A stretch of 64,000 nucleotides of DNA from Octopus vulgaris (Eukaryota), in the NCBI GenBank assembly GCA_951406725.2, contig OX597825.1, forward strand, positions 45,632,001-45,696,000, written 5' to 3'. Position numbers and translations under genes: made by a program. This document shows, piece by piece, positions 656 to 63,308 of this stretch; the first letter of the stretch is position 1, and each line of letters starts with the position of its first letter. A model generated the notes under the pieces. That model ran no database searches. It saw nothing but the letters and a program-made list of their open reading frames with translations, and was not told the origin of the DNA.

Positions 656-1048
656 TCATATAATATAAATTATATAGTACAGATGTATGATTTATAAAAA
701 TAACATAGTAAGCCAACTGGAAAGAAAGTCAAAAGGAGAGCAAGCTAAAACGAGTGCAAGCCAAAAGGAGAGCAGGCCAATTGTGGTAGTAGTGGCTAAT
801 TCAAATTTGTTTTTTAGTACTTATTTGCAATATTTTGACAGATTTTGTATCCTGAAAACTTTTGAGACTTTAATGATCTCTTGGATAAATATAATCTTAT
901 TATCAATCTGTTAACTTATATTTACCCAAGAGATCAATCAAGTCACAAAAGTTTTCAGAAAACAAAATGTCAAAATATTGCAAATAAGCATAAAAAAGTG
1001 AACACAATTACTAATTCAAATTTGTATTTTCGTACTTATTTGCAATAA

Positions 1049-3030
1049 GGAGAGCAAGCAAACTGGAGAGCAAGCCAAAAGGAGTGCAAGGCAAAAGGAG
1101 AGCAAGCCGAAATGAGAGCAAGCAGAAAGGAGAGTAAGCCAACTGGAGAGCAAGCCAAAAGGAGTGCAAAGCAAAAGGAGAGCAAGCAGAAAGGAGAGTA
1201 AGCCAACTGGAAAGAAAGTCAAAAGGAGAGCAAGCTAAAAGGAGTGCAAGCCAAAAGGAGAGCAGGCCAAAAGGAGAAGTCAAAAGTTTTCAGAAAACAA
1301 AATGTCTCAAAATATTGCAAATAAGCATAAAGAATAGAACACAATTGCTAATTCAAATTTGTTATTTTTTAGTACTTAATTGCTATATTTTGACACATTT
1401 TGAATCCTGAAAACATTTGAGACTTTAGTGATCGCTTGGATAAATATAATATTATCAAAGTTAACATCACTAACAAAATGTGTCAAAATATTGCAAATAA
1501 GCATAAAAAAGCGAACAAAATTGCTATGCAGTTTGTATCCTGAAAACTTTTGAGACTTTAGTGATCTCTTGGATAGATATAATCTTATCATAAAGTGAAC
1601 ACAATTGCTAATTCAAATTTGTTGTTTTTCGTACTTATTTACAATATGGAGAGCAAGCCAAAGGGAGTGCAAGGCAAAAGGAGAGCAAGCCAAAAGGATA
1701 GCAAGCAGAAAGGAGAGTAAGCTAACTGGGAAGAAAGCCAAAAGGAGCAAGCTAAATGGAGTGTAAGGCAAAAGGAGAGCAAGCCAACTGGAGAGCAAGC
1801 CAAAAGAAGTGCAAGGCAAAAGGAGAGCAAGCAGAAAGGAGAGCAAGCCAACTGGAGAGCAAGCGAAAAAGAAGAGCAAGCCAAAAGGAGAGCAAGCAGG
1901 AAGGAGAGTAAGCCAACTGGAAAGCAAGTCAAAAGGAGAGCAAGCTTTAGAAAGGAGTGCAAGCCAAAAGACAAAAGTTTTCAGAAATTTGTCAAAATAT
2001 TGCAAATTGCTAATTCAAATTTGTTATTTTTTAGTACTTAATTGCAATATTTTGACACATTTTGTATCCTGAAAACTTTTGAGACTTTAGTGATCGCTTG
2101 GATAAATATAGTATTAGCAAAGTTAGAGACTTTAGTGGGAAGAAGGCCAAAAGGAGAGCAAGCCAAAAGGAGAAGTCAAAAGTTTTCTTGGGTAAATATA
2201 AGTAAACTGATTGATAATAAGATTGTATCTATCCTCTTGGATAGATACAATCTTATTATCAATCAACCCGAAAGGAGAAGTCAAAAGTTTTCTTGGGTAA
2301 ATATAAGTAAACTGATTGATAATAAGATTGTATCTATCCAAGAGGATAGATACAATCTTATTATCAGTTTACTATATACTTACCCAAGAAAACTTTTGAC
2401 TTCTCCTTTCGGCTTGCTCTCCTTTTGGCCTTCTTCCCAGTTCTCCTTTTGGCTTGCTCTCTAGTTGGCTTGATCTCCTTTCTGCTTGCTCTCCTTTGGC
2501 TTGCTCTCCTTTTGGCCTTCTTCCTTTGGCTTACTCTCCTTCCCGCTTGCTCTCCTTTTGTCTTGCACTCCTTTTGGCTTGCTCTCCTTTTACCTTGCAC
2601 TCCTTTTGGCTTGCTCTCCTTTTACCTTACACTCCTTTTGGCTTGCTCTCCAGTTGGCCTGCTCTCATTTCTGCCTGCTCTCCTTTTAGCTTGCTCTACT
2701 TTTGCCTAGCACTCCTTTTGGCTTGCTCTCCTGTTGGCTTGCTCTCCTTTCTGCTTGCTCTCCTTTTGGCTTGCTCTCCTTTTGCCTAGCACTCCTTTTG
2801 GCTTGCTCTCCAGTTGGCTTGCTCTCCTTTTAGCTTGCTCTCCTTTAAGCTTGCTCTCCTTTTAGCTTGCTCTCCTTTTGGCTTGCTCTCCAGTTGGCTT
2901 GCTCTCCTTTCTGCTTGCTCTCCTTTTGGCTTGCACTCCTTTTGCCTAGCACTCCTTTTGGCTTGCTCTCCTTTCTGCTTGCTCTCCTTTTAGCTTGCCC
3001 TCCTTTTGCCTTGCACCCCTTTTGGCTTGC
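1049..3030. repeat. 16-bp minisatellite arrays (ggagagcaagccaaaa and variants)
   Basis: Arrays lie at ~1049-1275 (+), ~1648-1968 (+) and ~2400-3030 (inverted). Shorter arrays are at ~710-780, 8697-8876, 11058-11237, 13423-13602 and 14160-14339. Confidence 0.9.
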
Positions 3031-6000
3031 TTTCCATATTGTAAATAAGTACGAAAAGACAACAAATTTGAATTAGCAGCATAGCAAATTTGTTCACTTT
3101 TTTATGCATAAGCATTGCAATATTTTGACACATTTTGTTTTCTGCGATCACTGAAGTCTCAAAAGTTTGTGTCAAAATATTAAGTACTAAAAAACAACAA
3201 ATTCGAATTAGCAATTGTGTTCACTTTTTAGGATACAAAATGTGTAAAAATATTGAAATTGGGACAAAAAACAACAAATTTGAATTTGCAAAATTGTTCA
3301 CTTTTGATGCATTTGATTTTCATAAAACTTATGTGACTCGAGTGATGTCTTGGATAAATAGAAGTTAACTGATTGATAAAATTGTATTTATCCAAGAAAT
3401 CAATATAGTCTTAAAAGTCTTCAGGACAAGTGTCAAATAATTGCAAATAAATACCAACAAATTTGAATTTGCAATTTTATCCTTTTATGCTCATTCGCAA
3501 TATTTTGAAACATTTTGTTTTCTAAAAAGTTATATTTACCAAAGAGATCACTCAAGTCTTTGTGACTTAAGTGATCTTTTGGGTAAATATAAGTTGTCAG
3601 TAAAGCAAATGTGACATTTTTCTAAAAGTGTTCTTATGCTTATATATACTTTTTATGCTTATTTGCAATATTTTGACACGCTTTTTTTTCTGAAAAGTTT
3701 ATCAGTTAACTGATTAATAAGATTATATTTATATTGATCTCTTTGATCAAAAAAACGTGAAAAGTTTTCAGTATACAAAATGTGTCAAAATATTGCAAAT
3801 AAGTACAAAAAAAACACAACAAATTTGAATTTTTATGTTTATTTGCAATATTTTGACATTTTGTTCTCTAAAAAGTTTTGTGATTTGAGTGATCTTTTGG
3901 GTAACTGATTGATAATAAGATTATATGTATCAAAGAAATCACAAAGACATCAAAACTTTTCAGTATACAAAATGTGTCAAAAAAATGTAATTAGGACTAA
4001 AAAACAATCAAAGACATCACTACAAAATACTAAAAAACGACAAATTTCAATTTCCAATGTTCTTATGCTTGCTTATTTGCTTATTTTGACACGTTTTGTT
4101 TTCTGAAAAGTTTTGCGTATATATAAGTTAATTGATTGATAATAATATCATATATTCATCTAAAAAGTTTTCAATAAAGCAAATATTGCAAATAAGAACA
4201 AAAAAAATTTGAATTACCCATTTTGTACTTTTCAATATTTTAATACATTTTGTATATTTACCCAAGAGATCACTCACACCACAACTTTCTCGAAAACAGA
4301 ATGTCAAAATATTGCAAAGAAGTGAATTAATTGCAATATTTTGACACATTTTGTATACTGAAAAGTTTTGATGTTTTTGTAATCTCTTTCATAAATTAAT
4401 TATTTAAGTTAGTTAACTTATGTCAAAAGTGTTTTCAGAAAACATGTCAAAATATTGTCAACATAATATTGTCAAAATATTGTCACCTTAATAACTGTTT
4501 CAAAATATTGCGAATGAGCATAAAAGGATAAAATTGCAACGATAAATATCCAAGAAATCACTATAGTCTTAAAAGTCTTCAGGATACAAGTGTCAAATAA
4601 TTGCAAATAAATACTGAAACCAACAAATTTGAATTTGCAATTTTATCAATCTGTTAACTTCTATTTACCCAAGAGATCACTCGAGTCACATAAGTTTAAT
4701 AAAAATCAAATGCAATAAAAGTGACCAATTTTGCAAATTCAAATTTATTTTTTGTCCCAATTTTAATATTCTTACACATCTTGTATACTAACTTTTGCTG
4801 TTTTTGTGAACTTTTTGATCAATCAAATAACATATTTACCAAAGAGATCACTCAAATCACATAACTTTTCCGAAAACAGAATGTAAAAAATATTGCAAAG
4901 CAGAAGTGAACTAAATTGCAAATACTTATTTGCAATATTTTGACACATTTTGTATACTGAAAACCTTTCACGTTTTTGTGATCTCATTGATGATTATAAT
5001 TTTATTAATCAGTTAATCAGAAAAATGTCACATTTGCTTTACGGACAACTTTTTAGAGGTCACTCAAAATATTGTAAATAAGCATAAAAAGTGAATAAAA
5101 TTGCAAATTTAAATTTGTTGTTTTCTAGTATTTGCAATATTTTGACACATCTTGTATACTGAATAGTTTTCATGTTTTTGTGCTCTCTTTGATAAATATA
5201 ATCAGCTAACATATCAGGCAATTCACAAATGTCTTTTGAAAGCAAGATGTTTTAAAATATTACAAATAAGCATAAAGAAAAAGCAAAATTGCTTATTGAA
5301 TGTTGGTCCTTTTTCGCAATATTTTAAAACATTTGCATTACTGAAAACTATTTACATTTTAGTGATCTCTTGGATAATAATATAATAATATAATAATAAT
5401 AATAATAAGTTAACTTACTCAAGAGCTTACTCAAGTCACAAGTTTTCTGGAAGCAAAATGTGTTTAAATTTTGCATATAAGGAAACAAAAGAAAACAATA
5501 TTGATAATTCAAAATTAGTTTATGTGTGTATTTACACGTGCATTCTGAAGACTATCGTGATAACTTGGATATATTATATTTACCTAACAGATCAAGCAAG
5601 TCACAAGTTCTATGAAAATTAAATATGGGAAAATATTGCAAAAAAGCATAAAAAGCAAAATTGCAATTTCAAGTTTGTTGTTTTTTTATCGTATTTTTAA
5701 TATTTTCACACATTTCACATACTGAACTTTTGGATCAATGAAATAACTGATAGTTACCTAAGAAATCACAAAAAAAGTAACAAAATATTTTAGAAAACAA
5801 AATGTGTCAATATATTATAAATAAGTAAAGGAGTGAACAACATTGCAAATTCAAATTTGTGTTTTTGTACTTATTTGCAACATTTTGTATGCTGAAAACT
5901 TTTCACGTTTTTGTGATAAGTATAACCTCATTAATCATTTAACATATTAACAAAGAGATCACTCAAGTAGCAAAACTTTTCAGAAGACACAAAATTTTGT

Positions 6001-8621
6001 AAAGAAGCATAAAAAGTGAACAAAATTGCAAATTTAAATTTATCTTGTTCTTATTTGCAATATTTTGACACATCATGTCTCATTTACTCCATATTTGCAC
6101 TTTATTTTCCAAAGTGGATCTGGTACATGCCGTAACCACTGCCGTAACCACTATGTTTGGTTTATTCGAATTCCTGTCCATTCCTGAGAAATACTGCCAG
6201 TACATTCCAGCGTTATGATTTGAGTGATCTCTTGGGTAAATATGTTAACTGATCATAAAGACTTCGAAACTCAAAGTATTGCAAAGTACTAAAAAACTTT
6301 TCAGAAAACAAAACGTTTCAAAATATTGTAAATAAGCATAAAAAGTAAACTAAATTGCAAAATTAAATTTGTTTTCTAGTACTTATTTGCAATATTTTGG
6401 CACATCTTGTATATTGAATAGTTTTGTGATCTCTTTGATAAATATAATCGTATCAGCAGTCAGTTGACATATATGTCTTTTAAATGTCTTTTAAAAGCAA
6501 AATGTTTTAAAATATTGCAAATAAGCATAAAGAAGGAAACAAAATTGCTTATTGAATGTTGTTATTTAATAATTATTTGCAATATTTTGAAACATTTACT
6601 TTACTGAAAACTGCTTAGATTTTAGTGATTTCTTGGATATTAAACTTACATTTACTCCAGTCACAAGATTTCTGGAAACAAACTGTTTAAATTTATTGTT
6701 TTCAGTATTTTTTGCAATATTATAAAATATTGCGAATGAACATAAAAGGAGAAAATTGCAAATTCAAATTTGTTGGATTCAGTATTTAATTGCAATTACT
6801 TGATACTTGTCCTCAAGACTTTTAAGACTATAGTGATTTCTTGGATATTATTTGACACTTTTAAGACTATAGTGATTTCTTGGATAAATATCCAAGAAAT
6901 CACTATAATCTGAAAAGTCTTCAGCATACAACAATTGTCAAATAATTGCATATAAATACTGAAACAAACAAATTTGAATTTGCAATTTTGTCAATCTGTT
7001 AACTTCTATTTACCCAAGAGATCACTCGAAATTTTTTATAAAAATCAAAAGCACCAAAAGTAAACAATTTAGCAACTTCAAATTTCTTGTTTTTTGTCCC
7101 AATTTTAATATTCTTACACATTTTGTATACTGATAACTTTTGCTGTTTTTGTGAACTTTTTGATCAATCAAAACATATTTCGCACGAATTTACTCAAGTC
7201 ACAAAACTTTTTAGAAAGCAAAATTAGTTAATATATTGCATACAAATATAAGAAGTGAACAACATTGCAATTTCAAATTTGTCGTTTTTTAGTACTTTGC
7301 AATACTTTGAGTTTTGGTATGTTTATGATCTTTAGTTAGCTTATATTTTCCCAAGAGATCAATCAAATCACAAACTTTTCAAAAACAATGTCAAAACATT
7401 GCAAAGAAGCATAAGAAGTGAACTAAATTGCAAATTGAAACAACTGAGATAGATGTTGAAGATGAGTATGTTCAATTTTATTGCTGGAAGTCATCTACAT
7501 ACGTTGATGGAAGGTATATGGTGATACGCATGTACCAGATCCACTTCGGCAAATATAGTGCAAACGTGGAGTAAATGAGAGGTCCTTTAAGTTAGGTAGG
7601 GGACAATGATTGGGCGTGGTGATAGCATTAAATCTCCTGTAATTACCAATGCATCTAAAATCTGCTTCACCCATCTGAGCTAAGTGTAGCGGAGGTGCCC
7701 AAGGGCTAGTATGACGTATAATACCGAATTCAGCCTGTTAGGTAAATATCAGTTATTTCATTGATGCAAAAGTTCACTATAAGTTTTCAGTATGTGAAAT
7801 GTGTGAAAATATTAAACATAGGACAAAAAACATCAAACTTGAAATTGGAATTTTGCTGTTTATGTTTTTTTGAAATATTTTCCTATACTTTAACAAAAAA
7901 AGAACAAAATTTTCTGCGATCACTGAAGTCTAAAAAGTTTTAGGATACAAAATGTGTCAAAATATTAAGTACTAAAAAACAACAAATTCTGTTAGGTAAA
8001 TATAATATATCCAAGTGATCACGATAGTCTTCAGAATGCACGTGTTAAAATATTGTAAATACACACAAAAACTAAATTTTAATTATCAATAATGTTTTAC
8101 TTTTTTCCTTATTTGCAAAATTTAATCACATTTTGCTTCCAGAAAACTTGTGACTTGAGTTAAACTCTCAAGTAAATGTAAGTTAGATCACTAAAATCTA
8201 AATAGTTTTCAGTAATGCAAATGTTTTAAAATATTGCGAAAAAGGCCCAACATTCAATAAGCAATTTTGTTTTTTCTTTATGCTTATTTGCAATATTTTA
8301 AAACATCTTGCTTTCAAAAGATATTTGTGACTTGCGTTAGCTGACCGTAAGGCAAATGTGACATTTTTTCTGATTATTAAATTATAATCATCAAAGAGAT
8401 CACAAAAACGTGAAAAGTTTTCAGTATACAAAATGTGTCAAAATATTGCAAATAAATATTTGCAATTTATTTCACTTCAGCTTCTTTGCAATATGTTGAC
8501 ATTCTGTTTTCGAAAAAGTTATGTGATTTGCGTGATCTCTTGGGTAAATATGTTATTTTATTGATCAAAAAGTTCACAAAAACAGCAAAAGTTAGTATAC
8601 AAAGTGTGTAAGAATATTGAA

Positions 8622-11600
8622 ATTGCAAATAAGCATAAAAAAGTGAACAAATTTGCTATGCTGCTAATTCAAATTTGTTGTCTTTTCGTACTTATGCCAA
8701 CTGGAGAGCAAGCCAAAAGGGGTGCAAGGCAAAAGGAGAGAAAGCCAAAAGGAGAGCAAGTAGAAAGGAGAGTAAGCCAACTGGGAAGAAGGCCAATAGG
8801 AGAGCAAGCTTAAAGGACTGAAAGGAAAAAGGAGAGCAAGCCAAAAGTAGAGCAAGCAGAAAGGAGAGCAAGCCAATAAGCAATTATGTTTTTTCTTTAT
8901 GCTTTTTGGCAATATTTTAAAACATCTTGCTTTCAAAAGATATTTGTGACTTGCGTTAGCTGATTATATTTATCAAAGAGAGCACAAATACTAGAAAACA
9001 ACAAATTTAGATTTGCAATTTTATTCACTTTTTATGCTTATTTACAATATTTTGTGTGATCTCTAAAAAGTTGACCGTAAAGCAAATGTGACATTTTTCT
9101 GATTAACTGATTATTAAATTATAATCATCAAAGAGATCACAAAAACGTGAAAAGTTTTCAGTAAACAAAATGTGTCAAAATATTGCAAATAAATATTTGC
9201 AATATGTTGATATTCTGTTTTCGAAAAAGTTATGTGATTTGCGTCATCTCTTGGGTAAATATGTTATTTGATTGATCAAAAAGTTCACAAAAACAGCAAA
9301 AGTTAGTATACAAAATGTGTAAGAATATTGAAATTGGGACAAATAACAACAAATTTGAATTTTCAAAATTGTTCACTTTTATTGCATTTGATTTTTATTA
9401 ATCTTGTGACTCGAGTTAATAGAAGTTAACAGATTGATAAAATTGCAAATTCAAATTTGTTGGTTTCAGTATTTATTTGCAATTATTTGACACTTGTTGT
9501 ATCCTGAAGACTTTTAAGACTATAGTGATTTCTTGGATATTTATCCTTGCAATTTTATCCTTTTATGCTCATTCGCAATATTTGGAAACAGTTATATTTA
9601 CAGTTATATTCTAAAAAGTTACAAAGACTTGAGCGATCTCTTTGGTAAATATAAATTTTTTGATTGATCAAGTTCACAAAAACATTTTGACGTTTTCTCA
9701 GTTAACTAAATCAGTTAACTTATATTTTCAGACAACAAAACGTATCAAAATATTGTAAATAAGCATAAAAAGTAAACAAAATTGCAAAATTAAATTTGTT
9801 TTACTGAAGTCGCAAAACTTTTCAGAAAACAAAGCGTGTCAAAATATTGCAAATAAGCATAAATAGTATATATAAGCATAAGAACACTTTCAGAAAAATG
9901 TTACATTTGCTTTACTGACAACTTTTTAGATAGGATAAATATATTATTATCAATCAATTAACTTATATATACCCATTCAGAAAACAAAATGTATCAAAAT
10001 ATTGTAAATAAGCATAAAAAAGTGAACAAAATTGCAAATTTAAATTCGTTTTCTAGTACTTATTTACAATATTTTGTCACATCTTGTATACTGAATAGTT
10101 TTGTGATAAATATAATCGTATTAGCAATTGTCTTTTGAAAGCAAAATGATTTAAAATATTGCAAATAAGCATAAAGAAGAAAACAAAATTGCTTATTGAA
10201 TGTTGTTACTTAATATTTTAAAACATTTGCTTTACTGAAAACTAGTCAGATTTAAGTGCAAGTCACGTTGTTTTTAGTATTTATTTGCAATATTTTGACA
10301 CTCGTTTCATCCTGAAGATCTCTTGGACTGTTGTTTTCTAGTCCTAATTACATTATTTTGACACATTTTGTATACTGAAAAGTTTTGATATGTTTCATAA
10401 ATATAATCTTATCAATTAAAGTTAGTTAACTTATATTTATTTAAGTCAAAAGTGTTTTGAGAAAAAATGTCAAAATATTTTCAACTTATAATGTTTTTGT
10501 GAAGTTTTTGATCAATCAAATAACTTATATTTACCCAAAAGATCACTTAAGTCACAAAGACTTTTAGAAAACAAAATGTTTCGAAATATTGCGAATGAGC
10601 ATGAAAGGATAAAATTGCAAATTTAAATTTGTTGGTATTTATTTGCAACTCTTTGACACTTGTCCTGAAGACTTTTAAGACTATATTGATTTCTTGGATA
10701 AATACAATTTTATCAATCAGTTAACTTTAAAGTATTATGAAAATCAAATGCATCAAAAGTGAACAATTTTGCAAATTCAAATTGTCCCAATTTCAATATT
10801 TTTACACATTTTCTATCCTAAAAAGTGAACACAATTGCTAATTCGAATTTGTTGACTTCTAGTACTTAATATTTTGATACATTTTGTATCCTGAAACTTT
10901 TGAGACTTCAGTGATCGCTTGGATAAATAGTCAATCAGTTAACTCAAGTCACAATAGGTTTTAGAAAACCAAATGTCAAAATATTGCAAATAAGCATAAA
11001 AAAGTGAACAAATTTGCTATGCTGCTAATTCAAATTTGTTGTCTTTTCGTACTTATGCCAACTGGAGAGCAAGCCAAAAGGGGTGCAAGGCAAAAGGAGA
11101 GAAAGCCAAAAGGAGAGCAAGTAGAAAGGAGAGTAAGCCAACTGGGAAGAAGGCCAATAGGAGAGCAAGCTTAAAGGACTGAAAGGAAAAAGGAGAGCAA
11201 GCCAAAAGTAGAGCAAGCAGAAAGGAGAGCAAGCCAATAAGCAATTATGTTTTTTCTTTATGCTTTTTGGCAATATTTTAAAACATCTTGCTTTCAAAAG
11301 ATATTTGTGACTTGCGTTAGCTGATTATATTTATCAAAGAGAGCACAAATACTAGAAAACAACAAATTTAGATTTGCAATTTTATTCACTTTTTATGCTT
11401 ATTTACAATATTTTGTGTGATCTCTAAAAAGTTGACCGTAAAGCAAATGTGACATTTTTCTGATTAACTGATTATTAAATTATAATCATCAAAGAGATCA
11501 CAAAAACGTGAAAAGTTTTCAGTAAACAAAATGTGTCAAAATATTGCAAATAAATATTTGCAATATGTTGATATTCTGTTTTCGAAAAAGTTATGTGATT

Positions 11601-14600
11601 TGCGTCATCTCTTGGGTAAATATGTTATTTGATTGATCAAAAAGTTCACAAAAACAGCAAAAGTTAGTATACAAAATGTGTAAGAATATTGAAATTGGGA
11701 CAAATAACAACAAATTTGAATTTTCAAAATTGTTCACTTTTATTGCATTTGATTTTTATTAATCTTGTGACTCGAGTTAATAGAAGTTAACAGATTGATA
11801 AAATTGCAAATTCAAATTTGTTGGTTTCAGTATTTATTTGCAATTATTTGACACTTGTTGTATCCTGAAGACTTTTAAGACTATAGTGATTTCTTGGATA
11901 TTTATCCTTGCAATTTTATCCTTTTATGCTCATTCGCAATATTTGGAAACAGTTATATTTACAGTTATATTCTAAAAAGTTACAAAGACTTGAGCGATCT
12001 CTTTGGTAAATATAAATTTTTTGATTGATCAAGTTCACAAAAACATTTTGACGTTTTCTCAGTTAACTAAATCAGTTAACTTATATTTTCAGACAACAAA
12101 ACGTATCAAAATATTGTAAATAAGCATAAAAAGTAAACAAAATTGCAAAATTAAATTTGTTTTACTGAAGTCGCAAAACTTTTCAGAAAACAAAGCGTGT
12201 CAAAATATTGCAAATAAGCATAAATAGTATATATAAGCATAAGAACACTTTCAGAAAAATGTTACATTTGCTTTACTGACAACTTTTTAGATAGGATAAA
12301 TATATTATTATCAATCAATTAACTTATATATACCCATTCAGAAAACAAAATGTATCAAAATATTGTAAATAAGCATAAAAAAGTGAACAAAATTGCAAAT
12401 TTAAATTCGTTTTCTAGTACTTATTTACAATATTTTGTCACATCTTGTATACTGAATAGTTTTGTGATAAATATAATCGTATTAGCAATTGTCTTTTGAA
12501 AGCAAAATGATTTAAAATATTGCAAATAAGCATAAAGAAGAAAACAAAATTGCTTATTGAATGTTGTTACTTAATATTTTAAAACATTTGCTTTACTGAA
12601 AACTAGTCAGATTTAAGTGCAAGTCACGTTGTTTTTAGTATTTATTTGCAATATTTTGACACTCGTTTCATCCTGAAGATCTCTTGGACTGTTGTTTTCT
12701 AGTCCTAATTACATTATTTTGACACATTTTGTATACTGAAAAGTTTTGATATGTTTCATAAATATAATCTTATCAATTAAAGTTAGTTAACTTATATTTA
12801 TTTAAGTCAAAAGTGTTTTGAGAAAAAATGTCAAAATATTTTCAACTTATAATGTTTTTGTGAAGTTTTTGATCAATCAAATAACTTATATTTACCCAAA
12901 AGATCACTTAAGTCACAAAGACTTTTAGAAAACAAAATGTTTCGAAATATTGCGAATGAGCATGAAAGGATAAAATTGCAAATTTAAATTTGTTGGTATT
13001 TATTTGCAACTCTTTGACACTTGTCCTGAAGACTTTTAAGACTATATTGATTTCTTGGATAAATACAATTTTATCAATCAGTTAACTTTAAAGTATTATG
13101 AAAATCAAATGCATCAAAAGTGAACAATTTTGCAAATTCAAATTGTCCCAATTTCAATATTTTTACACATTTTCTATCCTAAAAAGTGAACACAATTGCT
13201 AATTCGAATTTGTTGACTTCTAGTACTTAATATTTTGATACATTTTGTATCCTGAAACTTTTGAGACTTCAGTGATCGCTTGGATAAATAGTCAATCAGT
13301 TAACTCAAGTCACAATAGGTTTTAGAAAACCAAATGTCAAAATATTGCAAATAAGCATAAAAAAGTGAACAAATTTGCTATGCTGCTAATTCAAATTTGT
13401 TGTCTTTTCGTTCGTACTTATGCCAACTGGAGAGCAAGCCAAAAGGGGTGCAAGGCAAAAGGAGAGAAAGCCAAAAGGAGAGCAAGCAGAAAGGAGAGCA
13501 AGCCAACTGGGAAGAAGGCCAATAGGAAAGCAAGCTAAAAGGAGTGCAAGGCAAAAGGAGAGCAAGCCAAAAGTAGAGCAAGCAGAAAGGAGAGCAAGCC
13601 AATAAGCAATTTTGTTTTTTCTTTATGCTTATTGGCAATATTTTAAAACATCTTACTTTCAAAAGATATTTGTGACTTGCGTTAGCTGATTATATTTATC
13701 AAAGAGAGCACAAATACTAGAAAACAACAAATTTAAATTTGCAATTTTATTCACTTTTTATGCTTATTTACAATATTTTGAGTGATCTCTAAAAAGTTGA
13801 CCGTAAAGCAAATGTGACATTTTTCTGATTAACTGATTATTAAATTATAATCATCAAAGAGATCACAAAAACGTGAAAAGTTTTCAGTATACAAAATGTG
13901 TCAAAATATTGCAAATAAATATTTGCAATTTATTTCACTTCAGCTTCTTTGCAATATGTTGACATTCTGTTTTCGAAAAAGTTATGTGATTTGCGTGATC
14001 TCTTGGGTAAATATGTTATTTTATTGATCAAAAAGTTCACAAAAACAGCAAAAGTTAGTATACAAAGTGTGTAAGAATATTGAAATTGCAAATAAGCATA
14101 AAAAAGTGAACAAATTTGCTATGCTGCTAATTTAAATTTGTTGTCTTTTCGTACTTATGCCAACTGGAGAGCAAGCCAAAAGGGGTGCAAGGCAAAAGGA
14201 GAGAAAGCCAAAAGGAGAGCAAGTAGAAAGGAGAGTAAGCCAACTGGGAAGAAGGCCAATAGGAGAGCAAGCTTAAAGGACTGAAAGGAAAAAGGAGAGC
14301 AAGCCAAAAGTAGAGCAAGCAGAAAGGAGAGCAAGCCAATAAGCAATTATGTTTTTTCTTTATGCTTTTTGGCAATATTTTAAAACATCTTGCTTTCAAA
14401 AGATATTTGTGACTTGCGTTAGCTGATTATATTTATCAAAGAGAGCACAAATACTAGAAAACAACAAATTTAGATTTGCAATTTTATTCACTTTTTATGC
14501 TTATTTACAATATTTTGTGTGATCTCTAAAAAGTTGACCGTAAAGCAAATGTGACATTTTTCTGATTAACTGATTATTAAATTATAATCATCAAAGAGAT

Positions 14601-16194
14601 CACAAAAACGTGAAAAGTTTTCAGTAAACAAAATGTGTCAAAATATTGCAAATAAATATTTGCAATATGTTGATATTCTGTTTTCGAAAAAGTTATGTGA
14701 TTTGCGTCATCTCTTGGGTAAATATGTTATTTGATTGATCAAAAAGTTCACAAAAACAGCAAAAGTTAGTATACAAAATGTGTAAGAATATTGAAATTGG
14801 GACAAATAACAACAAATGTGTAAGAATATTGAAATTGGGACAAATAACAACAAATTTGAATTTTCAAAATTGTTCACTTTTATTGCATTTGATTTTTATT
14901 AATCTTGTGACTCGAGTTAATAGAAGTTAACAGATTGATAAAATTGCAAATTCAAATTTGTTGGTTTCAGTATTTATTTGCAATTATTTGACACTTGTTG
15001 TATCCTGAAGACTTTTAAGACTATAGTGATTTCTTGGATATTTATCCTTGCAATTTTATCCTTTTATGCTCATTCGCAATATTTGGAAACAGTTATATTT
15101 ACAGTTATATTCTAAAAAGTTACAAAGACTTGAGCGATCTCTTTGGTAAATATAAATTTTTTGATTGATCAAGTTCACAAAAACATTGTTGACAATATTT
15201 TGACGTTTTCTCAGTTAACTAAATCAGTTAATTTATATTTTCAGACAACAAAATATTGTAAATAAGCATAAAAAGTAAACAAAATTGCAAAATTAAATTT
15301 GTTTTACTGAAGTCGCAAAACTTTTCAGAAAACAAAGCGTGTCAAAATATTGCAAATAAGCATAAATAGTATATATAAGCATAAGAACACTTTCAGAAAA
15401 ATGTTACATTTGCTTTACTGACAACTTTTTAGATAGGATAAATATATTATTATCAATCAATTAACTTATATATACCCATTCAGAAAACAAAATGTATCAA
15501 AATATTGTAAATAAGCATAAAAAAGTGAACAAAATTGCAAATTTAAATTCGTTTTCTAGTACTTATTTACAATATTTTGTCACATCTTGTATACTGAATA
15601 GTTTTGTGATAAATATAATCGTATTAGCAATTGTCTTTTGAAAGCAAAATGATTTAAAATATTGCAAATAAGCATAAAGAAGAAAACAAAATTGCTTATT
15701 GAATGTTGTTACTTAATATTTTAAAACATTTGCTTTACTGAAAACTAGTCAGATTTAAGTGCAAGTCACGTTGTTTTTAGTATTTATTTGCAATATTTTG
15801 ACACTCGTTTCATCCTGAAGATCTCTTGGACTGTTGTTTTCTAGTCCTAATTACATTATTTTGACACATTTTGTATACTGAAAAGTTTTGATATGTTTCA
15901 TAAATATAACCTTATCAATTAAAGTTAGTTAACTTATATTTATTCAAGTCAAAAGTGTTTTGAGAAAAAATGTCAAAATATTTTCAACTTATAATGTTTT
16001 TGTGAAGTTTTTGATCAATCAAATAATTTATATTTACCCAAAAGATCACAAGTCACAAAGACTTTTAGAAAACAAAATGTTTCGAAATATTGCGAATGAG
16101 CATGAAAGGATAAAATTGCAAATTCAAATTTGTTGGTATTTATTTGCAACTATTTGACACTTGTCCTGAAGACTTTTAAGACTATATTGATTTC
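8622..16194 (+). repeat. Higher-order tandem duplication, 2361-bp unit
   Basis: The anchor attgcaaataagcataaaaaagtgaacaaatttgctatgc occurs at 8622, 10983, 13344 and 14085. Identical spurious ORFs occur at 8664, 11025 and 14127. Confidence 0.9.
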
Positions 16195-17531
16195 ATACCA
16201 GCTGATGCATTATCCAAATTTCCTGTGTTCACTTTCGTCTCCTGCAATTTGATTGCTGTCGCCACACACCAACCTTTTTTGGACTCTTTGGAGACTTCTT
16301 CCAACGAATAATTGCAGATTTGAATTCCTACCAATCTTCCATCTGCTAAAAGATCTGCTGAAATACTTACGTCTTCCATCCTTTGTGGACCGCTTGTTCC
16401 ACATCATCATCAGTGTACTATTTCCAATGCTCTTCATTCCAATCACATTCCTGCATAGCCTTCACGATAAGGCTCAATACAACCCATTTCTTCTGACCGT
16501 CACTAGTTGGACACGTTTGTATTGTCAACGTCCCAAGGTCCTTAGACATATTCGTGCTCCTCTCGAAAAATTCAGCCCACCGGATGCTCGTTTCCGTCAT
16601 GTCAACATCGACATTGTTGGACCATCGCCCATTAGTCGCGGTTTCACGAGCCTCTTGACTTGCATCGATTGCTTCTCTCGATGGCCTGAAAACATACCTC
16701 TGATTGACACCACAGCCCAAGCGTTCATTTCCAATTGCTTTGGTGTCCCATCTAAAATAACCACTGATAGGGGACGCCAGTTTGAAGCTTCTTTATTTTG
16801 TAAAATACTCTTGGGTGCTCATCGAATTCATACCATGGAATTATAGAACAATTCCACAGACAGTTAAAAGCTGCACTACGCGCTACTCCTGATCTGCAAC
16901 GTTGGAGCGAATTCCTACCCTGGTTGCCGTTCTGTTGTTAAGACACAGTTGATTCATCAGATTCTGATACATCATACATCAACAGACTTCGTTCTTACTT
17001 CTCCAATCTTCCACCAATGTCTCTGCGCGATTAATCCATTTCTTCTACTGTCCCATCAGATATCTCACGAAAAAACTTCATAGTCGACGTTAATGGTCAA
17101 AAAGAAACAATATCCATCACCTCTAAACTTTATATCACAAGAAGTGGCAGAACAGTACATTGGCTACAAAAATTATCCAGAACTATTTATATTTAACGTT
17201 GTATTACAAAACAAACTGCTTGCTATTTCTTTTACAAAAGAACATTTGTTCAAAACCATTTTTCTCATGCACATTTCACATTGTATTTTTCATATTGCCA
17301 TGTTTTGCATTTAGTTTGATGTGCATAGCTGTGTATAAAGGTTTGCTGCACCAAACTCTGCAATTATATTCAGTACCTATCACAATGCATGTATTGATTT
17401 TCTCCTATTTTACTACTTGTTTTGCAAGCACATATTTCTGCACATATTTCTGCTACGTCGTTTTGCTTCATATCTACCCTGGATCACTACAATGATTTTG
17501 CTTATCGACTTCTCGCCTGGGGAGGGAGTTA
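16195..17531 (+). mobile_element. Gypsy LTR retrotransposon 3' internal fragment (RNase H end and integrase), degenerate
   Basis: IPADALS at 16195 (RNase H end). Integrase core motifs FRHVNIDIVGP, LLTCIDCFSRWPE and FGVPSKITTDRGRQF. Polypurine tract ggggagggag at 17519-17528. Confidence 0.85.
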
Positions 17532-17953
17532 TGTAGTGACCCCTGACAGTCAAGCAGGAAAGCAAAATGAAAAAGGGATCTAACGAGAGTAATCTCTTCT
17601 GACCTTCTCGAAAATTCTAGAATTTTCCAACTAACTTCTGGATGACGTGGAAGTCAGGGACTTCAAGTTAATCCCTTATATAAAGGAACACATTTCTAAT
17701 TTCGCCCCACTCTTGCCTGTCGGTTCCTAGACATGCACTGAGACACGCCACGCATATATGTTCGCCTCATTTGCTTTGAGACGTGGTTGCAAAATATGTT
17801 CATGTGATGTTACAAACCTTTCCTTCAATTAACGCATTACATCCAGTAATAAATATGTTATGTCTTACAAATTCTTATTTTCTTGTCGTTGACGTACAAG
17901 ATAGTGACCCCTCTTTCTCGCATGCAAATGTAAAAAATATAGGATGTCACTCA
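17532..17953 (+). mobile_element. Gypsy 3' LTR
   Basis: Starts tgtagtgac just after the PPT and ends gtcactca (imperfect inverted terminus). Contains tatataaa (~17677) and aataaa (~17848). Confidence 0.7.
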
Positions 17954-18073
17954 CCGATGTCCTCTTAGGGTTAAAAAACATCGCATGTTAATCTCTTAAG
18001 GAGATTTCAGAACTAGAATTTTTGCTTGTTGCAAAATCAGCAACTGTATGTTCCTTTGAAATATATATATATA

Positions 18074-18148
18074 TCTATAATATAAAACTCAACTTGTGTG
18101 TATCTGTGTGTATCTGTGTGTTTAACTTCCCGGTACATCTCCTCCTAG
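18074..18148 (+). mobile_element. Possible Helitron 5' end
   Basis: tctataatataaaa follows a (TA)n run and precedes tgtgtgtatctg repeats. It resembles the 5' end of the Helitron at ~62820 (-). No matching 3' end was found. Confidence 0.35.
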
Positions 18149-19167: not shown

Positions 19168-21623
<2,456 letters not shown>

Positions 21624-21670
21624 ATGTTGCGAGCAGAAGCGAGTTTCTACTATCTGTAGCAGATAAGGTG

Positions 21671-21888
21671 TCCAGTACTGGTAGAAATAGCCTGAAACGA
21701 GAACTAGTCTATTGATCCAGTCGCTGGAAAGTGGAAGGAGTTCGCTCCCTTGCTCGCAATTCCTTGGATGCAGCAAGAGGTGATGCTGCATCCAATGAAT
21801 TGCGAGCAAGGGAGCGAACTCCTTCCACTTCCCAGCGACTGGATCAATAGACTAGTTCTCGTTTCAGGCTATTTCTACCAGTACTGGA
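21671..21888. repeat. Foldback inverted repeat, ~105-bp arms (MITE-like)
   Basis: tccagtactggtagaaatagcc...ggatgcagca pairs with tgctgcatcc...ggctatttctaccagtactgga across an 8-nt spacer, with few mismatches. Confidence 0.85.
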
Positions 21889-22169
21889 GGTGATGTTAAA
21901 ATATTCTGTTCAAACGGACAGCTATGTTAAGGTAGGTACAAATATTACTTATACATATATAAACACACACACACACGCACATACACACACATATATTTAT
22001 ATATATATATTTTTAATACTTAAGGAATATTAGGAGTGTATCTAGAAGTATTTATTAGCACAACAATCATTCCAGTGTCCCTAGCGCGCGTGCATATACA
22101 TGCACGCATTCATACGAAAAGGGACAGAAACACACGACCATATTGCACACGCGCATACACACAGACACA

Positions 22170-22703
22170 GCCATACGTACATACCTACATACATATATAC
22201 ATACATTTATACATACAAACATACATACATGCATGCATACGTACATACATACACATATACATGCCTGCATACATACATACATACATACATGCATGCATGC
22301 GTCCATGCATGCATTCATACATACATGCATGCGTGAGTGCATGCATACATACATACATAGATACATATATACATACATGCATAAATAAATACACTTACAT
22401 TCATACATATATACATGCATGCATACATACATACATGCATGCAGGAATGCATGTATGCATACATACATATATAATTACATACATACAAGCATGCATGCAT
22501 ACATAATACATAAATACATACATGCATGCATACATTCATACATACACACATACATACATGCATACATACATGCATGCCTGCATAAATGCATACATACATG
22601 CATGCATACATACATACATGCATGCATAAACACATACATGCAAACATACGTACTTACATACATACATACATGCATATATCCATGCATGCATGCATGCATT
22701 CAT
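22170..22703. repeat. Degenerate (CATA/CATG)n microsatellite
   Basis: Seen directly. Confidence 0.9.
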
Positions 22704-61974: not shown

Positions 61975-62820
61975 ACTAGCAGAATTGCCCGGCGTTGCTC
62001 GGGGCTGAATTGCTTGAAAGTACTGTTAATGATTGCACTGAATTATGATGATTATTCAGGCAAATATTGATATAAGCTTACGGTGGGAGATAAGGACTTA
62101 ACGATCAAACGTGTGCCATTGCATTGTTTTGGGGGAACCAAATTTCTGATGAACATTATAGGGGCACCAACTTTAAGTTTGAGAAAGTGTGGTGGTAGTC
62201 CAGGGTGCTCAAAGGAATTGAGTACCTCTATTGGATAATTGATGACGTCCTCTGGGTCAGGAGTTGTATCGATAGACTGATATACATAGACTTCCCCAGG
62301 AATGAGTTTCAGCATTTCATCATTAATATGGTGAACAGTTTTATTCCTCGGGGCCAGTATAGCCTTTTTGCCAATCCAATCCATATTCTGATAATTAGCT
62401 TGTAGATCTGGGAACACTGCATCTCTGAGATCAGAAGGCGTCTTAACAATGGTACAAATGGAATCGATGGCAATATTACCATTTTCATCCCCTGGTATTT
62501 TGCCTTCGCCAAGTGCAAGGAGGGTGTGAGGAAATGCTGCTGATGTGATATTACGTCGCATATGAGCACGCATATTGGTGTGAAGTTTGAGAGTTACTTC
62601 CGTTTATTTTAAAAAATATGCATTAAAATGGAAAAAAATGATGGTAAATTATTTGTAAAATCATAGACTCATTGTAGATGCGCGCTAATACCCAGAAGGG
62701 CTCGATATGAATCACGACTATAAGATACCCGGTTTTGGTTAAACTGCATCGCAAAATGTGGGAGTAGTTAGGAATCTAAATCGGAGTAGACAGACACACA
62801 ACCTTCTTTTATATATAAAT
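61975..62820 (-). mobile_element. Non-autonomous Helitron retaining a Pif1-helicase fragment
   Basis: The 3' end has a hairpin and CTAG (cccgagcaacgccgggcaattctgCTAG followed by T). ORF 62052-62573 has AILAPRN, GLPPHFLKLKVGAPIMFIRNL and CNGTRL. The 5' end is tttatatataaaag. Confidence 0.88.
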
Positions 62821-63308
62821 ATTTTCGTCCTAAAAAACTTTGTATGGATTGAATGGTTACCTCTATGGAAATATATACACGCACATTATACATACATGTG
62901 TGTACAGATGAACATATAAATACATTTAAATATCTATATACACTTTTGGGCGATCTTTCTGTTTCTTAGAGATAACTTTAGATCTTATTTTCGTGCTAAA
63001 AAACTTTGTATGGAGTGAATGGTTACCTCTATGGAAATATATACACACACGTTATACATACATGTGTGCATAGATGAATATATAAATACATTTATATATC
63101 TATATACACTTTTGGGCGATCTCTGTGCTACTTAGAGATAACTTTAGATCTTATTTTCGTCCTAAAAAACTTTGTGCGGAGTGAATGGTTATGTGTATGG
63201 AAATATATACACACACATTATACATACATCTGTGTATAGATGAATATATAAATACATTTAAATATCTATATACACTTTTGGGCGATCTTTCTGCTACTTG
63301 GATATAGG
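62821..63308 (+). repeat. 166-bp tandem repeat (~3 copies, resuming after the MITE)
   Basis: attttcgt(c/g)ctaaaaaactttgt occurs at 62821, 62987 and 63153, and resumes at ~63774. Confidence 0.9.

Follow-up and report, generated by a model that had tools for sequence, protein, structure and literature searches.

A 64,000-nucleotide window of the Octopus vulgaris genome (G000:C12:45632001-45696000 of a 2.8-Gb assembly; coordinates refer to this window unless a contig is named) contains near its left end a 15.5-kb, AT-rich array of a satellite with a 220-bp monomer, and within this array lie inverted arms on the kilobase scale. An earlier sequence-only reading had described an imperfect palindrome of about 8 kb at 3040-11055. 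The inverted arms are real, but this extent is not, as the array spans 700-16194 and has no end at either 3040 or 11055. When decoded against the 220-bp consensus, the array resolves into 385 segments (mean 34 nt, ~85% identity) arranged in orientation blocks with several strand flips, and blocks of a 16-bp minisatellite are interspersed through it. The array and its right flank comprise the following features, given with strand where one applies.

700-16194: AT-rich 220-bp satellite array
700-2174, forward: near-consensus monomers alternating with the 16-bp minisatellite, the left half of a separate fold-back centred at ~2300-2400
2175-2412: young local hairpin cluster, with 1 substitution in 87 aligned positions between its arms
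2401-3035, reverse: 16-bp minisatellite, ~37 copies, with an inverted counterpart at 11057-11237
3036-5298, forward: outer left arm
5300-5761, forward: inner left arm, pairing with 7738-8253 at 5.6-8% divergence
6078-6214, forward: left-arm copy of a Ty3/Gypsy-like reverse transcriptase (RT) relic fragment, a non-satellite marker of the inversion
6868-6886/6889-6907: perfect hairpin with 19-bp arms and the loop AA
7435-7728, reverse: right-arm copy of the RT relic
7738-8253, reverse: inner right arm
7909-7988, forward: templated patch matching left-arm positions 3138-3204
8622-13343, forward: 2361-bp higher-order unit present twice, head to tail, the two copies having 0 differences
8874-11056, reverse: outer right arm, whose well-aligned blocks differ from the left arm by 2.9-4.7%
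13344-16194, forward: ~740-bp shorter unit, together with a truncated third copy of the long unit (7 substitutions in 2060 positions)
16195-16945, forward: integrase-region relic of the same long terminal repeat (LTR) retrotransposon family as the RT marker, directly abutting the array

The 220-bp consensus was built from 17 full-length copies on five contigs. The monomer is itself an inverted repeat, consisting of a ~75-bp stem and two loops, and as circular DNA it is predicted to fold into a rod in which 78% of the bases are paired (-59 kcal/mol; z of -14 against 100 shuffles). Searches of the octopus's own genome place the satellite on at least 14 contigs, in assembled arrays of 0.1-27 kb, several of which adjoin scaffold gaps or telomeric repeats.

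All four ordered reverse-complement pairs of the earlier reading, together with a fifth, are seen in self-BLAST and in exact-match maps: 3045-3595/10522-11056 (14 substitutions in 478 aligned positions), 4491-5298/8874-9595 (34 in 716), 5300-5591/7988-8253 (14 in 252), 5624-5761/7738-7887 (11 in 137) and 6078-6130/7528-7580 (5 in 53). Collinearity was assessed with 38 locus-private anchors, defined as 25-mers not found in 10 other loci of the satellite family. Between the arms these anchors give a Spearman coefficient of -0.83, and the longest collinear chain holds 26 of the 38, compared with at most 14 in 2000 shuffles. In addition, exact 25-mers of the reversed right arm cover 38.6% of the left arm, against 0-7% for 10 control loci. 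Because anchors private to the locus are collinear, the arm matches are not random monomer hits, the outcome that a self-comparison had been proposed to expose. Between 3600-4490 and 9600-10520 the arms can be aligned only piecewise, with one piece out of order.

The anchors define two axes of symmetry, one for the outer arms at ~7025-7085 (~7040) and one for the inner arms at ~6690-6830 (~6780), and the offset between them corresponds to a duplication in the right arm. In place of the single centre near 6.9 kb proposed earlier there are thus two axes, and neither is the local hairpin. The hairpin reported at ~6867-6910 is present (6868-6907), but its junction string recurs at 4541 and, reversed, at 9545, in both arms, and 4541-4932 recurs in direct orientation at 6883-7281. 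The centre is built from direct copies of older segments, and the hairpin is a relic of an older fold-back. The nested symmetry proposed for the locus, from monomer through local hairpins to kilobase-scale arms, is present at each level.

The two RT relics provide a non-satellite record of the inversion. Both match a dispersed Ty3/Gypsy-like family, copies of which also match 16194-16945, and a paralog 50 kb away (L030) scores as RVT_1; the integrase relic at 16195-16945 matches rve with an E-value of 1.6e-5, a match that does not reach the curated cut-off. Relative to L030, the two marker copies, which lie in opposite orientation, have lost different parts (3 and 5 indels of at least 5 nt). 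The marker thus shows that the arms arose by a true inverted duplication, after which each copy lost sequence independently. L030 also carries, at 1501-2775 (G000:C12:45582186 onward), collinear matches to 7727-7435, 17888-18084 and 21639-22315, and may represent an old segmental duplicate of the window region without the satellite.

It could be asked whether the long-range order of the locus, namely the inverted arms and the identical 2361-bp copies, is an artefact of assembly, given that those copies show 0 differences and that no record spans the structure. This seems exceedingly improbable, as 3-10% divergence and private deletions separate the arms, and as the junctions at 6078 and 7435 are crossed, with 0-1 differences, by short-read contigs from X1 and X2 (runs of two studies, one possibly made from the source sample). 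An X2 contig covering 6844-7029 likewise crosses the hairpin at 6868-6907. Contigs on the repeated unit are several times deeper than those on the unique inner pieces, and this depth, which is not copy number, gives a weak hint that the 2361-bp tandem copies are real.

Divergence between the arms increases from the outside toward the centre, with seven successive blocks at 2.9, 3.6, 4.7, 5.6, 8.0, 9.4 and 9.8% (trend p 8e-4). Other fold-backs at the locus have ages of their own. The one near 2300 has inner blocks that are 1-1.5% diverged, with 807-1023/3783-4007 at 11%; an older internal fold-back in the outer left arm (4000-4370) pairs 3228-3515 with 4493-4791 and 3745-3992 with 4748-5000 at 7-10%; and that at 6888 is 12% diverged. 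At 7909-7988, the templated patch shows the 44-nt deletion junction of the left arm and is without that arm's 13-nt deletion, so that it was likely copied between the two deletion events and likely captures the left arm in an intermediate state. Tandem repetition of the right arm came later. Pieces of the same decayed unit occur in runs of organisms B and C, in which the centre is uncovered (a gap that carries no weight as evidence), and the decay is therefore probably older than the split of these organisms.

A breakage-fusion or template-switch origin had been suggested previously, and template switching or fold-back does fit the locus, but as a single event it does not, since the divergence of the arms is graded. 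That one breakage-fusion-bridge or fold-back event produced an 8-kb palindrome, as the collinearity of the arms around a hairpin-holding centre might suggest, is most improbable: the symmetry has two axes, older segments recur as direct copies in the centre, and the repeats to the right are direct rather than alternating. The graded divergence contradicts such an event as well, unless arm-to-arm conversion alone accounts for the gradient.

The arms also bear an excess of deletions. Across the four well-aligned arm blocks (1583 aligned positions) there are 73 substitutions and 24 indels comprising 296 bases, such that the earlier statement that the arms differ mainly by indels is true when bases are counted (296 gap versus 73 substituted) and false when events are counted (24 versus 73). 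Half of the indels (12 of 24) measure 7-46 nt. Indels of at least 5 nt number 12 per 73 substitutions between the arms, compared with 18 per 391 in 8 control pairs, an excess of ~3.5-fold (p 0.002); in long alignments, pairs of the same retroelement family elsewhere show ~0.03-0.06 large indels per substitution. At all 12 arm indels the consensus is matched better by the longer allele, in a test that is length-biased. Microhomology at these 12 indels gives p 0.055. Among 93 deletions, 48 lie over monomer positions 100-180, a concentration noticed post hoc.

A natural contrast is offered by a 141-bp subfamily on contigs C17, C23, C27, C29 and C30, which is without ~79 nt of the monomer, including most of one arm of the stem, and for which the predicted fold is only -13 to -16 kcal/mol. 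Large indels number 4 per 182 substitutions in 141-bp arrays (three stretches) and 112 per 925 in 220-bp arrays (five stretches; p 4e-5). Since arrays of this short-stem form are clean, the contrast suggests that the long stem drives the scarring of 220-bp arrays.

Beyond what is observed directly, namely the monomer structure, the collinear arms, the marker in both of them, the layers of divergence, the excess of deletions and the tandem repeats, we consider it probable that the locus is a multi-kilobase inverted duplication within a palindromic-monomer array that was built by several rounds of fold-back or template switching, was eroded, and was then tandemly repeated. Each monomer would offer a ~75-bp hairpin on single-stranded DNA at a fork or break, at which a 3′ end could snap back or switch strand and then copy backward. 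Repair of later breaks in an arm, either through outward copying of its partner or through conversion, would explain why the outer parts of the arms are more alike than the inner ones. End-joining after breakage may remove 5-50 nt per event and so weaken the stems, and unequal exchange may then multiply the decayed right arm. On this account an encoded enzyme is unnecessary, and the structure has no evident function.

Several observations weigh against this interpretation. The divergence gradient depends on small counts in the inner blocks (5/53 and 8/82). The excess of indels may be regional, because the integrase relic adjoining the array is indel-rich as well and supplies 14 of the 18 control indels. 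Tabulation of microhomology at deletion junctions, proposed earlier as a check, revealed no clear excess, with a mean of 1.0 against 0.97 expected over 129 distinct deletions across decoded arrays (p 0.41) and a mean of 0.81 in a detection simulation, and deletions do not cluster significantly at hairpin tips (25 of 93, versus 128 of 613 simulated; p 0.22). The contrast between 220-bp and 141-bp arrays is confounded by age and by differing reference consensus, and it excludes a two-monomer, near-consensus 220-bp copy on C19 with 17 substitutions and 0 large indels. Arrays on C16, C26 and C30 have no kilobase-scale inversion inside them, and among the X1 and X2 short-read contigs none spans both arms.

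Elsewhere in the genome, kilobase-scale inversions that include the satellite are found on C14, C17 and C29. Anchors and most deletions are locus-private, with 5 deletions common to loci, a comparison that covers deletions and anchors rather than the inversion junctions themselves. The C14 locus (G000:C14:30232200-30239850; L047) is a 7.6-kb palindrome that has a 1.4-kb (TA)n tract at its centre and arms of 99.2% identity and stops at a scaffold gap; it is either a young fold-back or a read artefact. On C17 (G000:C17:19845-55583; L038-L042), 20 kb from the contig start, a 36-kb inverted duplication with arms 92-99% identical adjoins a 16-kb tandem array with telomeric hexamers and includes the 141-bp subfamily. 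On C30 (G000:C30:13484700-13491200; L077), a macro-dyad of 6.4 kb (84-85%) is likewise formed by a different satellite of ~121 bp, which lies beside a 141-bp array. About 31 kb upstream of the window is another array of the 220-bp family (G000:C12:45592800-45600900), more heavily decayed and with many strand switches, and on C7 (G000:C7:109398000-109402750; L021) decayed units are interleaved with interstitial CCCTAA runs, which suggests a former chromosome end.

The 16-bp minisatellite, which within 700-2174 occupies 710-780, 1042-1277, 1648-1970 and 2117-2174, is a dispersed family in its own right. Its junction with the satellite (1039-1058) is common to G000:C29:5138555, so at least one transfer of a composite block between chromosomes must have occurred. 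The minisatellite was rejected as an obligatory terminal domain, since it is joined to a satellite array at 1 of 9 other minisatellite loci. Immediately to the left of the array, 260-655 is a short interspersed nuclear element (SINE)-like repeat with copies nearby. Farther to the right, a nearly pure (TGTA)n tract of 2.4 kb (99% matches) occupies 19168-21627, and a Pif1 helicase fragment beside a 166-bp tandem repeat, possibly a Helitron relic, lies at 62055-63306.

A Foldback-type element with modular terminal inverted repeats (TIRs) had been put forward for this locus, and long modular inverted arms containing tandem repeats, as in Foldback and Tetris, are indeed present. One could envision a decayed transposon of this type with its transposase encoded elsewhere and TIRs composed of a 16-bp outer domain and satellite modules, given that the minisatellite ends both outer arms, that arm identity peaks at the outer ends, and that the minisatellite/satellite junction recurs on C29, its sole other match in the genome. 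However, the satellite extends past both arm ends, and among the other minisatellite loci 7 of 9 have no satellite match and one has a match of 27 nt only. The search for outer termini and a target-site duplication (TSD) that had been proposed yielded neither: the 800-bp flanks of 14 arrays have only unrelated repeats in common, with no terminal box or conserved flanking domain of the kind expected for Foldback or Helitron/Helentron elements, and at five candidate end pairs the best duplication within ±25 nt is 5-7 bp rather than 8-10 bp. The phasing of 38 natural array ends on the monomer (excluding ends at gaps, source edges and internal breaks) is not significant (p 0.05-0.48), and the longest open frame within 700-16194 encodes 140 amino acids, with none of 150 or more. 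Long frames with Pfam matches elsewhere in the window represent relics of long interspersed nuclear elements (LINEs), an LTR element and a Pif1 helicase. The inverted pair on C17, which was tried as a candidate full element, proved to be a 36-kb inversion of LINE relics and microsatellites that encloses no transposase. A Foldback origin is thus very unlikely.

It is also unlikely that the rod-shaped monomer spreads as a closed circle, either a DNA dumbbell or RNA, that is copied by a rolling-circle mechanism and leaves the arrays as decayed insertions. The predicted circular fold, which would pair 78% of the bases, is consistent with such a life cycle, as are scattered short copies 90-97% identical to the consensus on C7, C14, C18 and C19, one of which comprises almost exactly two in-phase monomers. 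Furthermore, 9 of the 38 array ends fall within one 15-nt stretch at the base of the stem (p 0.05, uncorrected), but at other widths or in folded coordinates this clustering gives p 0.09-0.48, and there are few loci in the assembly among the matches listed. No ribozyme was identified by comparison of the satellite with Rfam, in which all 26 matches up to an E-value of 1 fall under the gathering score and are hairpin matches only, and the hammerhead core motif, expected in each monomer of a retrozyme, is absent from the 220-bp consensus. Stem positions are no better conserved than loops (0.128 versus 0.131 mismatch), so that the fold shows no trace of selection. A test for selection acting on the stem, or on motifs that resemble transcription-factor sites, was likewise negative, with no better conservation (rank p 0.46). 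One isolated copy on C18 (G000:C18:68003023-68003210; L024) is a lone ~190-bp insertion, 97% identical to the consensus, whose ends form an 11-bp inverted repeat that apparently arose through a terminal strand switch; no TSD was seen there.

A broader and rather doubtful proposal is that the 220-bp rod is a protein-free, self-priming entity, seeded by rolling-circle copying of a dumbbell and then undergoing self-driven fold-back amplification and deletion, such that only derivatives that lose the long stem, namely the 141-bp form and decayed higher-order units, become stable, homogenised satellites. If true, this would place a full structure-driven satellite life cycle within one genome. Apart from ordinary instability in cis, neither mobility nor self-amplification is demonstrated for the structure, and the earlier designation of an undescribed self-amplifying system is too strong, as only cis structure is seen as a driver and dyads at three levels are known from Tribolium satellites (PMC13081366). 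Under staged fold-back, the graded arms and the captured marker represent a datable record of palindrome growth in the germ line. The occurrence of one family with a long stem (scarred and inverted) and a short stem (clean) also provides a means to test how hairpin strength separates a stable satellite from a local mutator.

Inverted satellite blocks occur in other genomes. Among the papers listed in literature searches, none describes the 220-bp repeat or a cephalopod palindromic satellite, although Repbase, Dfam or supplementary files could name the repeat. Among the mechanistically related systems, origin-dependent inverted-repeat amplification (ODIRA) resembles the octopus array in placing inversion junctions at pre-existing interrupted inverted repeats, where template switching makes inverted amplicons, and in the secondary deletion of arms (PMC10766183). 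However, ODIRA is described there as using repeats of 2-14 bp and yielding an inverted triplication of unique DNA, while the octopus array has ~75-bp repeats in every monomer and has kept no third copy of the marker. Human palindromic AT-rich repeats (PATRRs) are likewise AT-rich inverted repeats with a short spacer that undergo deletion and palindromic duplication; inverted repeats that are longer, more similar and closer together are more recombinogenic, and hairpin-capped ends lead to palindromic duplications (PMC7999016). PATRRs are single palindromes, whereas those of the octopus are tandem and show no significant tip-centred deletion bias. Tetris, a Foldback element of Drosophila virilis, resembles the octopus array in its long modular inverted arms, which contain tandem repeats, in its non-coding middle and in its association with satellite arrays, but carries a conserved flanking domain and 8-10 bp TSDs (PMC4079207), neither of which was found in the octopus.

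The closest known system is that of the dyad satellites of Tribolium madens, TmSat1 and TmSat2, for which the original study describes three levels of dyad symmetry and states that satellite macro-dyads are documented solely in Tribolium (PMC13081366). As in the octopus, these satellites have inverted segments in the monomer, subunits of ~110 bp, multi-kilobase macro-dyads and two intermingled repeats (PMC13081366). The Tribolium arrays are megabase-sized and homogenised, with a putative (peri)centromeric position and inversion sites that are highly conserved (PMC13081366). In contrast, the assembled arrays of the octopus are 0.1-27 kb long, heavily deleted, with apparently private inversion points and arms of graded age, and the two are likened by layout and not by sequence. 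The octopus family is a tandem repeat at several loci, has inverted segments in its monomer and forms multi-kilobase inverted subarrays, and the array is thus a cephalopod case of satellite macro-dyad symmetry. Layered dyad satellites were known from Tribolium, and what is new here is the combination of a palindromic monomer with a probably staged macro-inversion.

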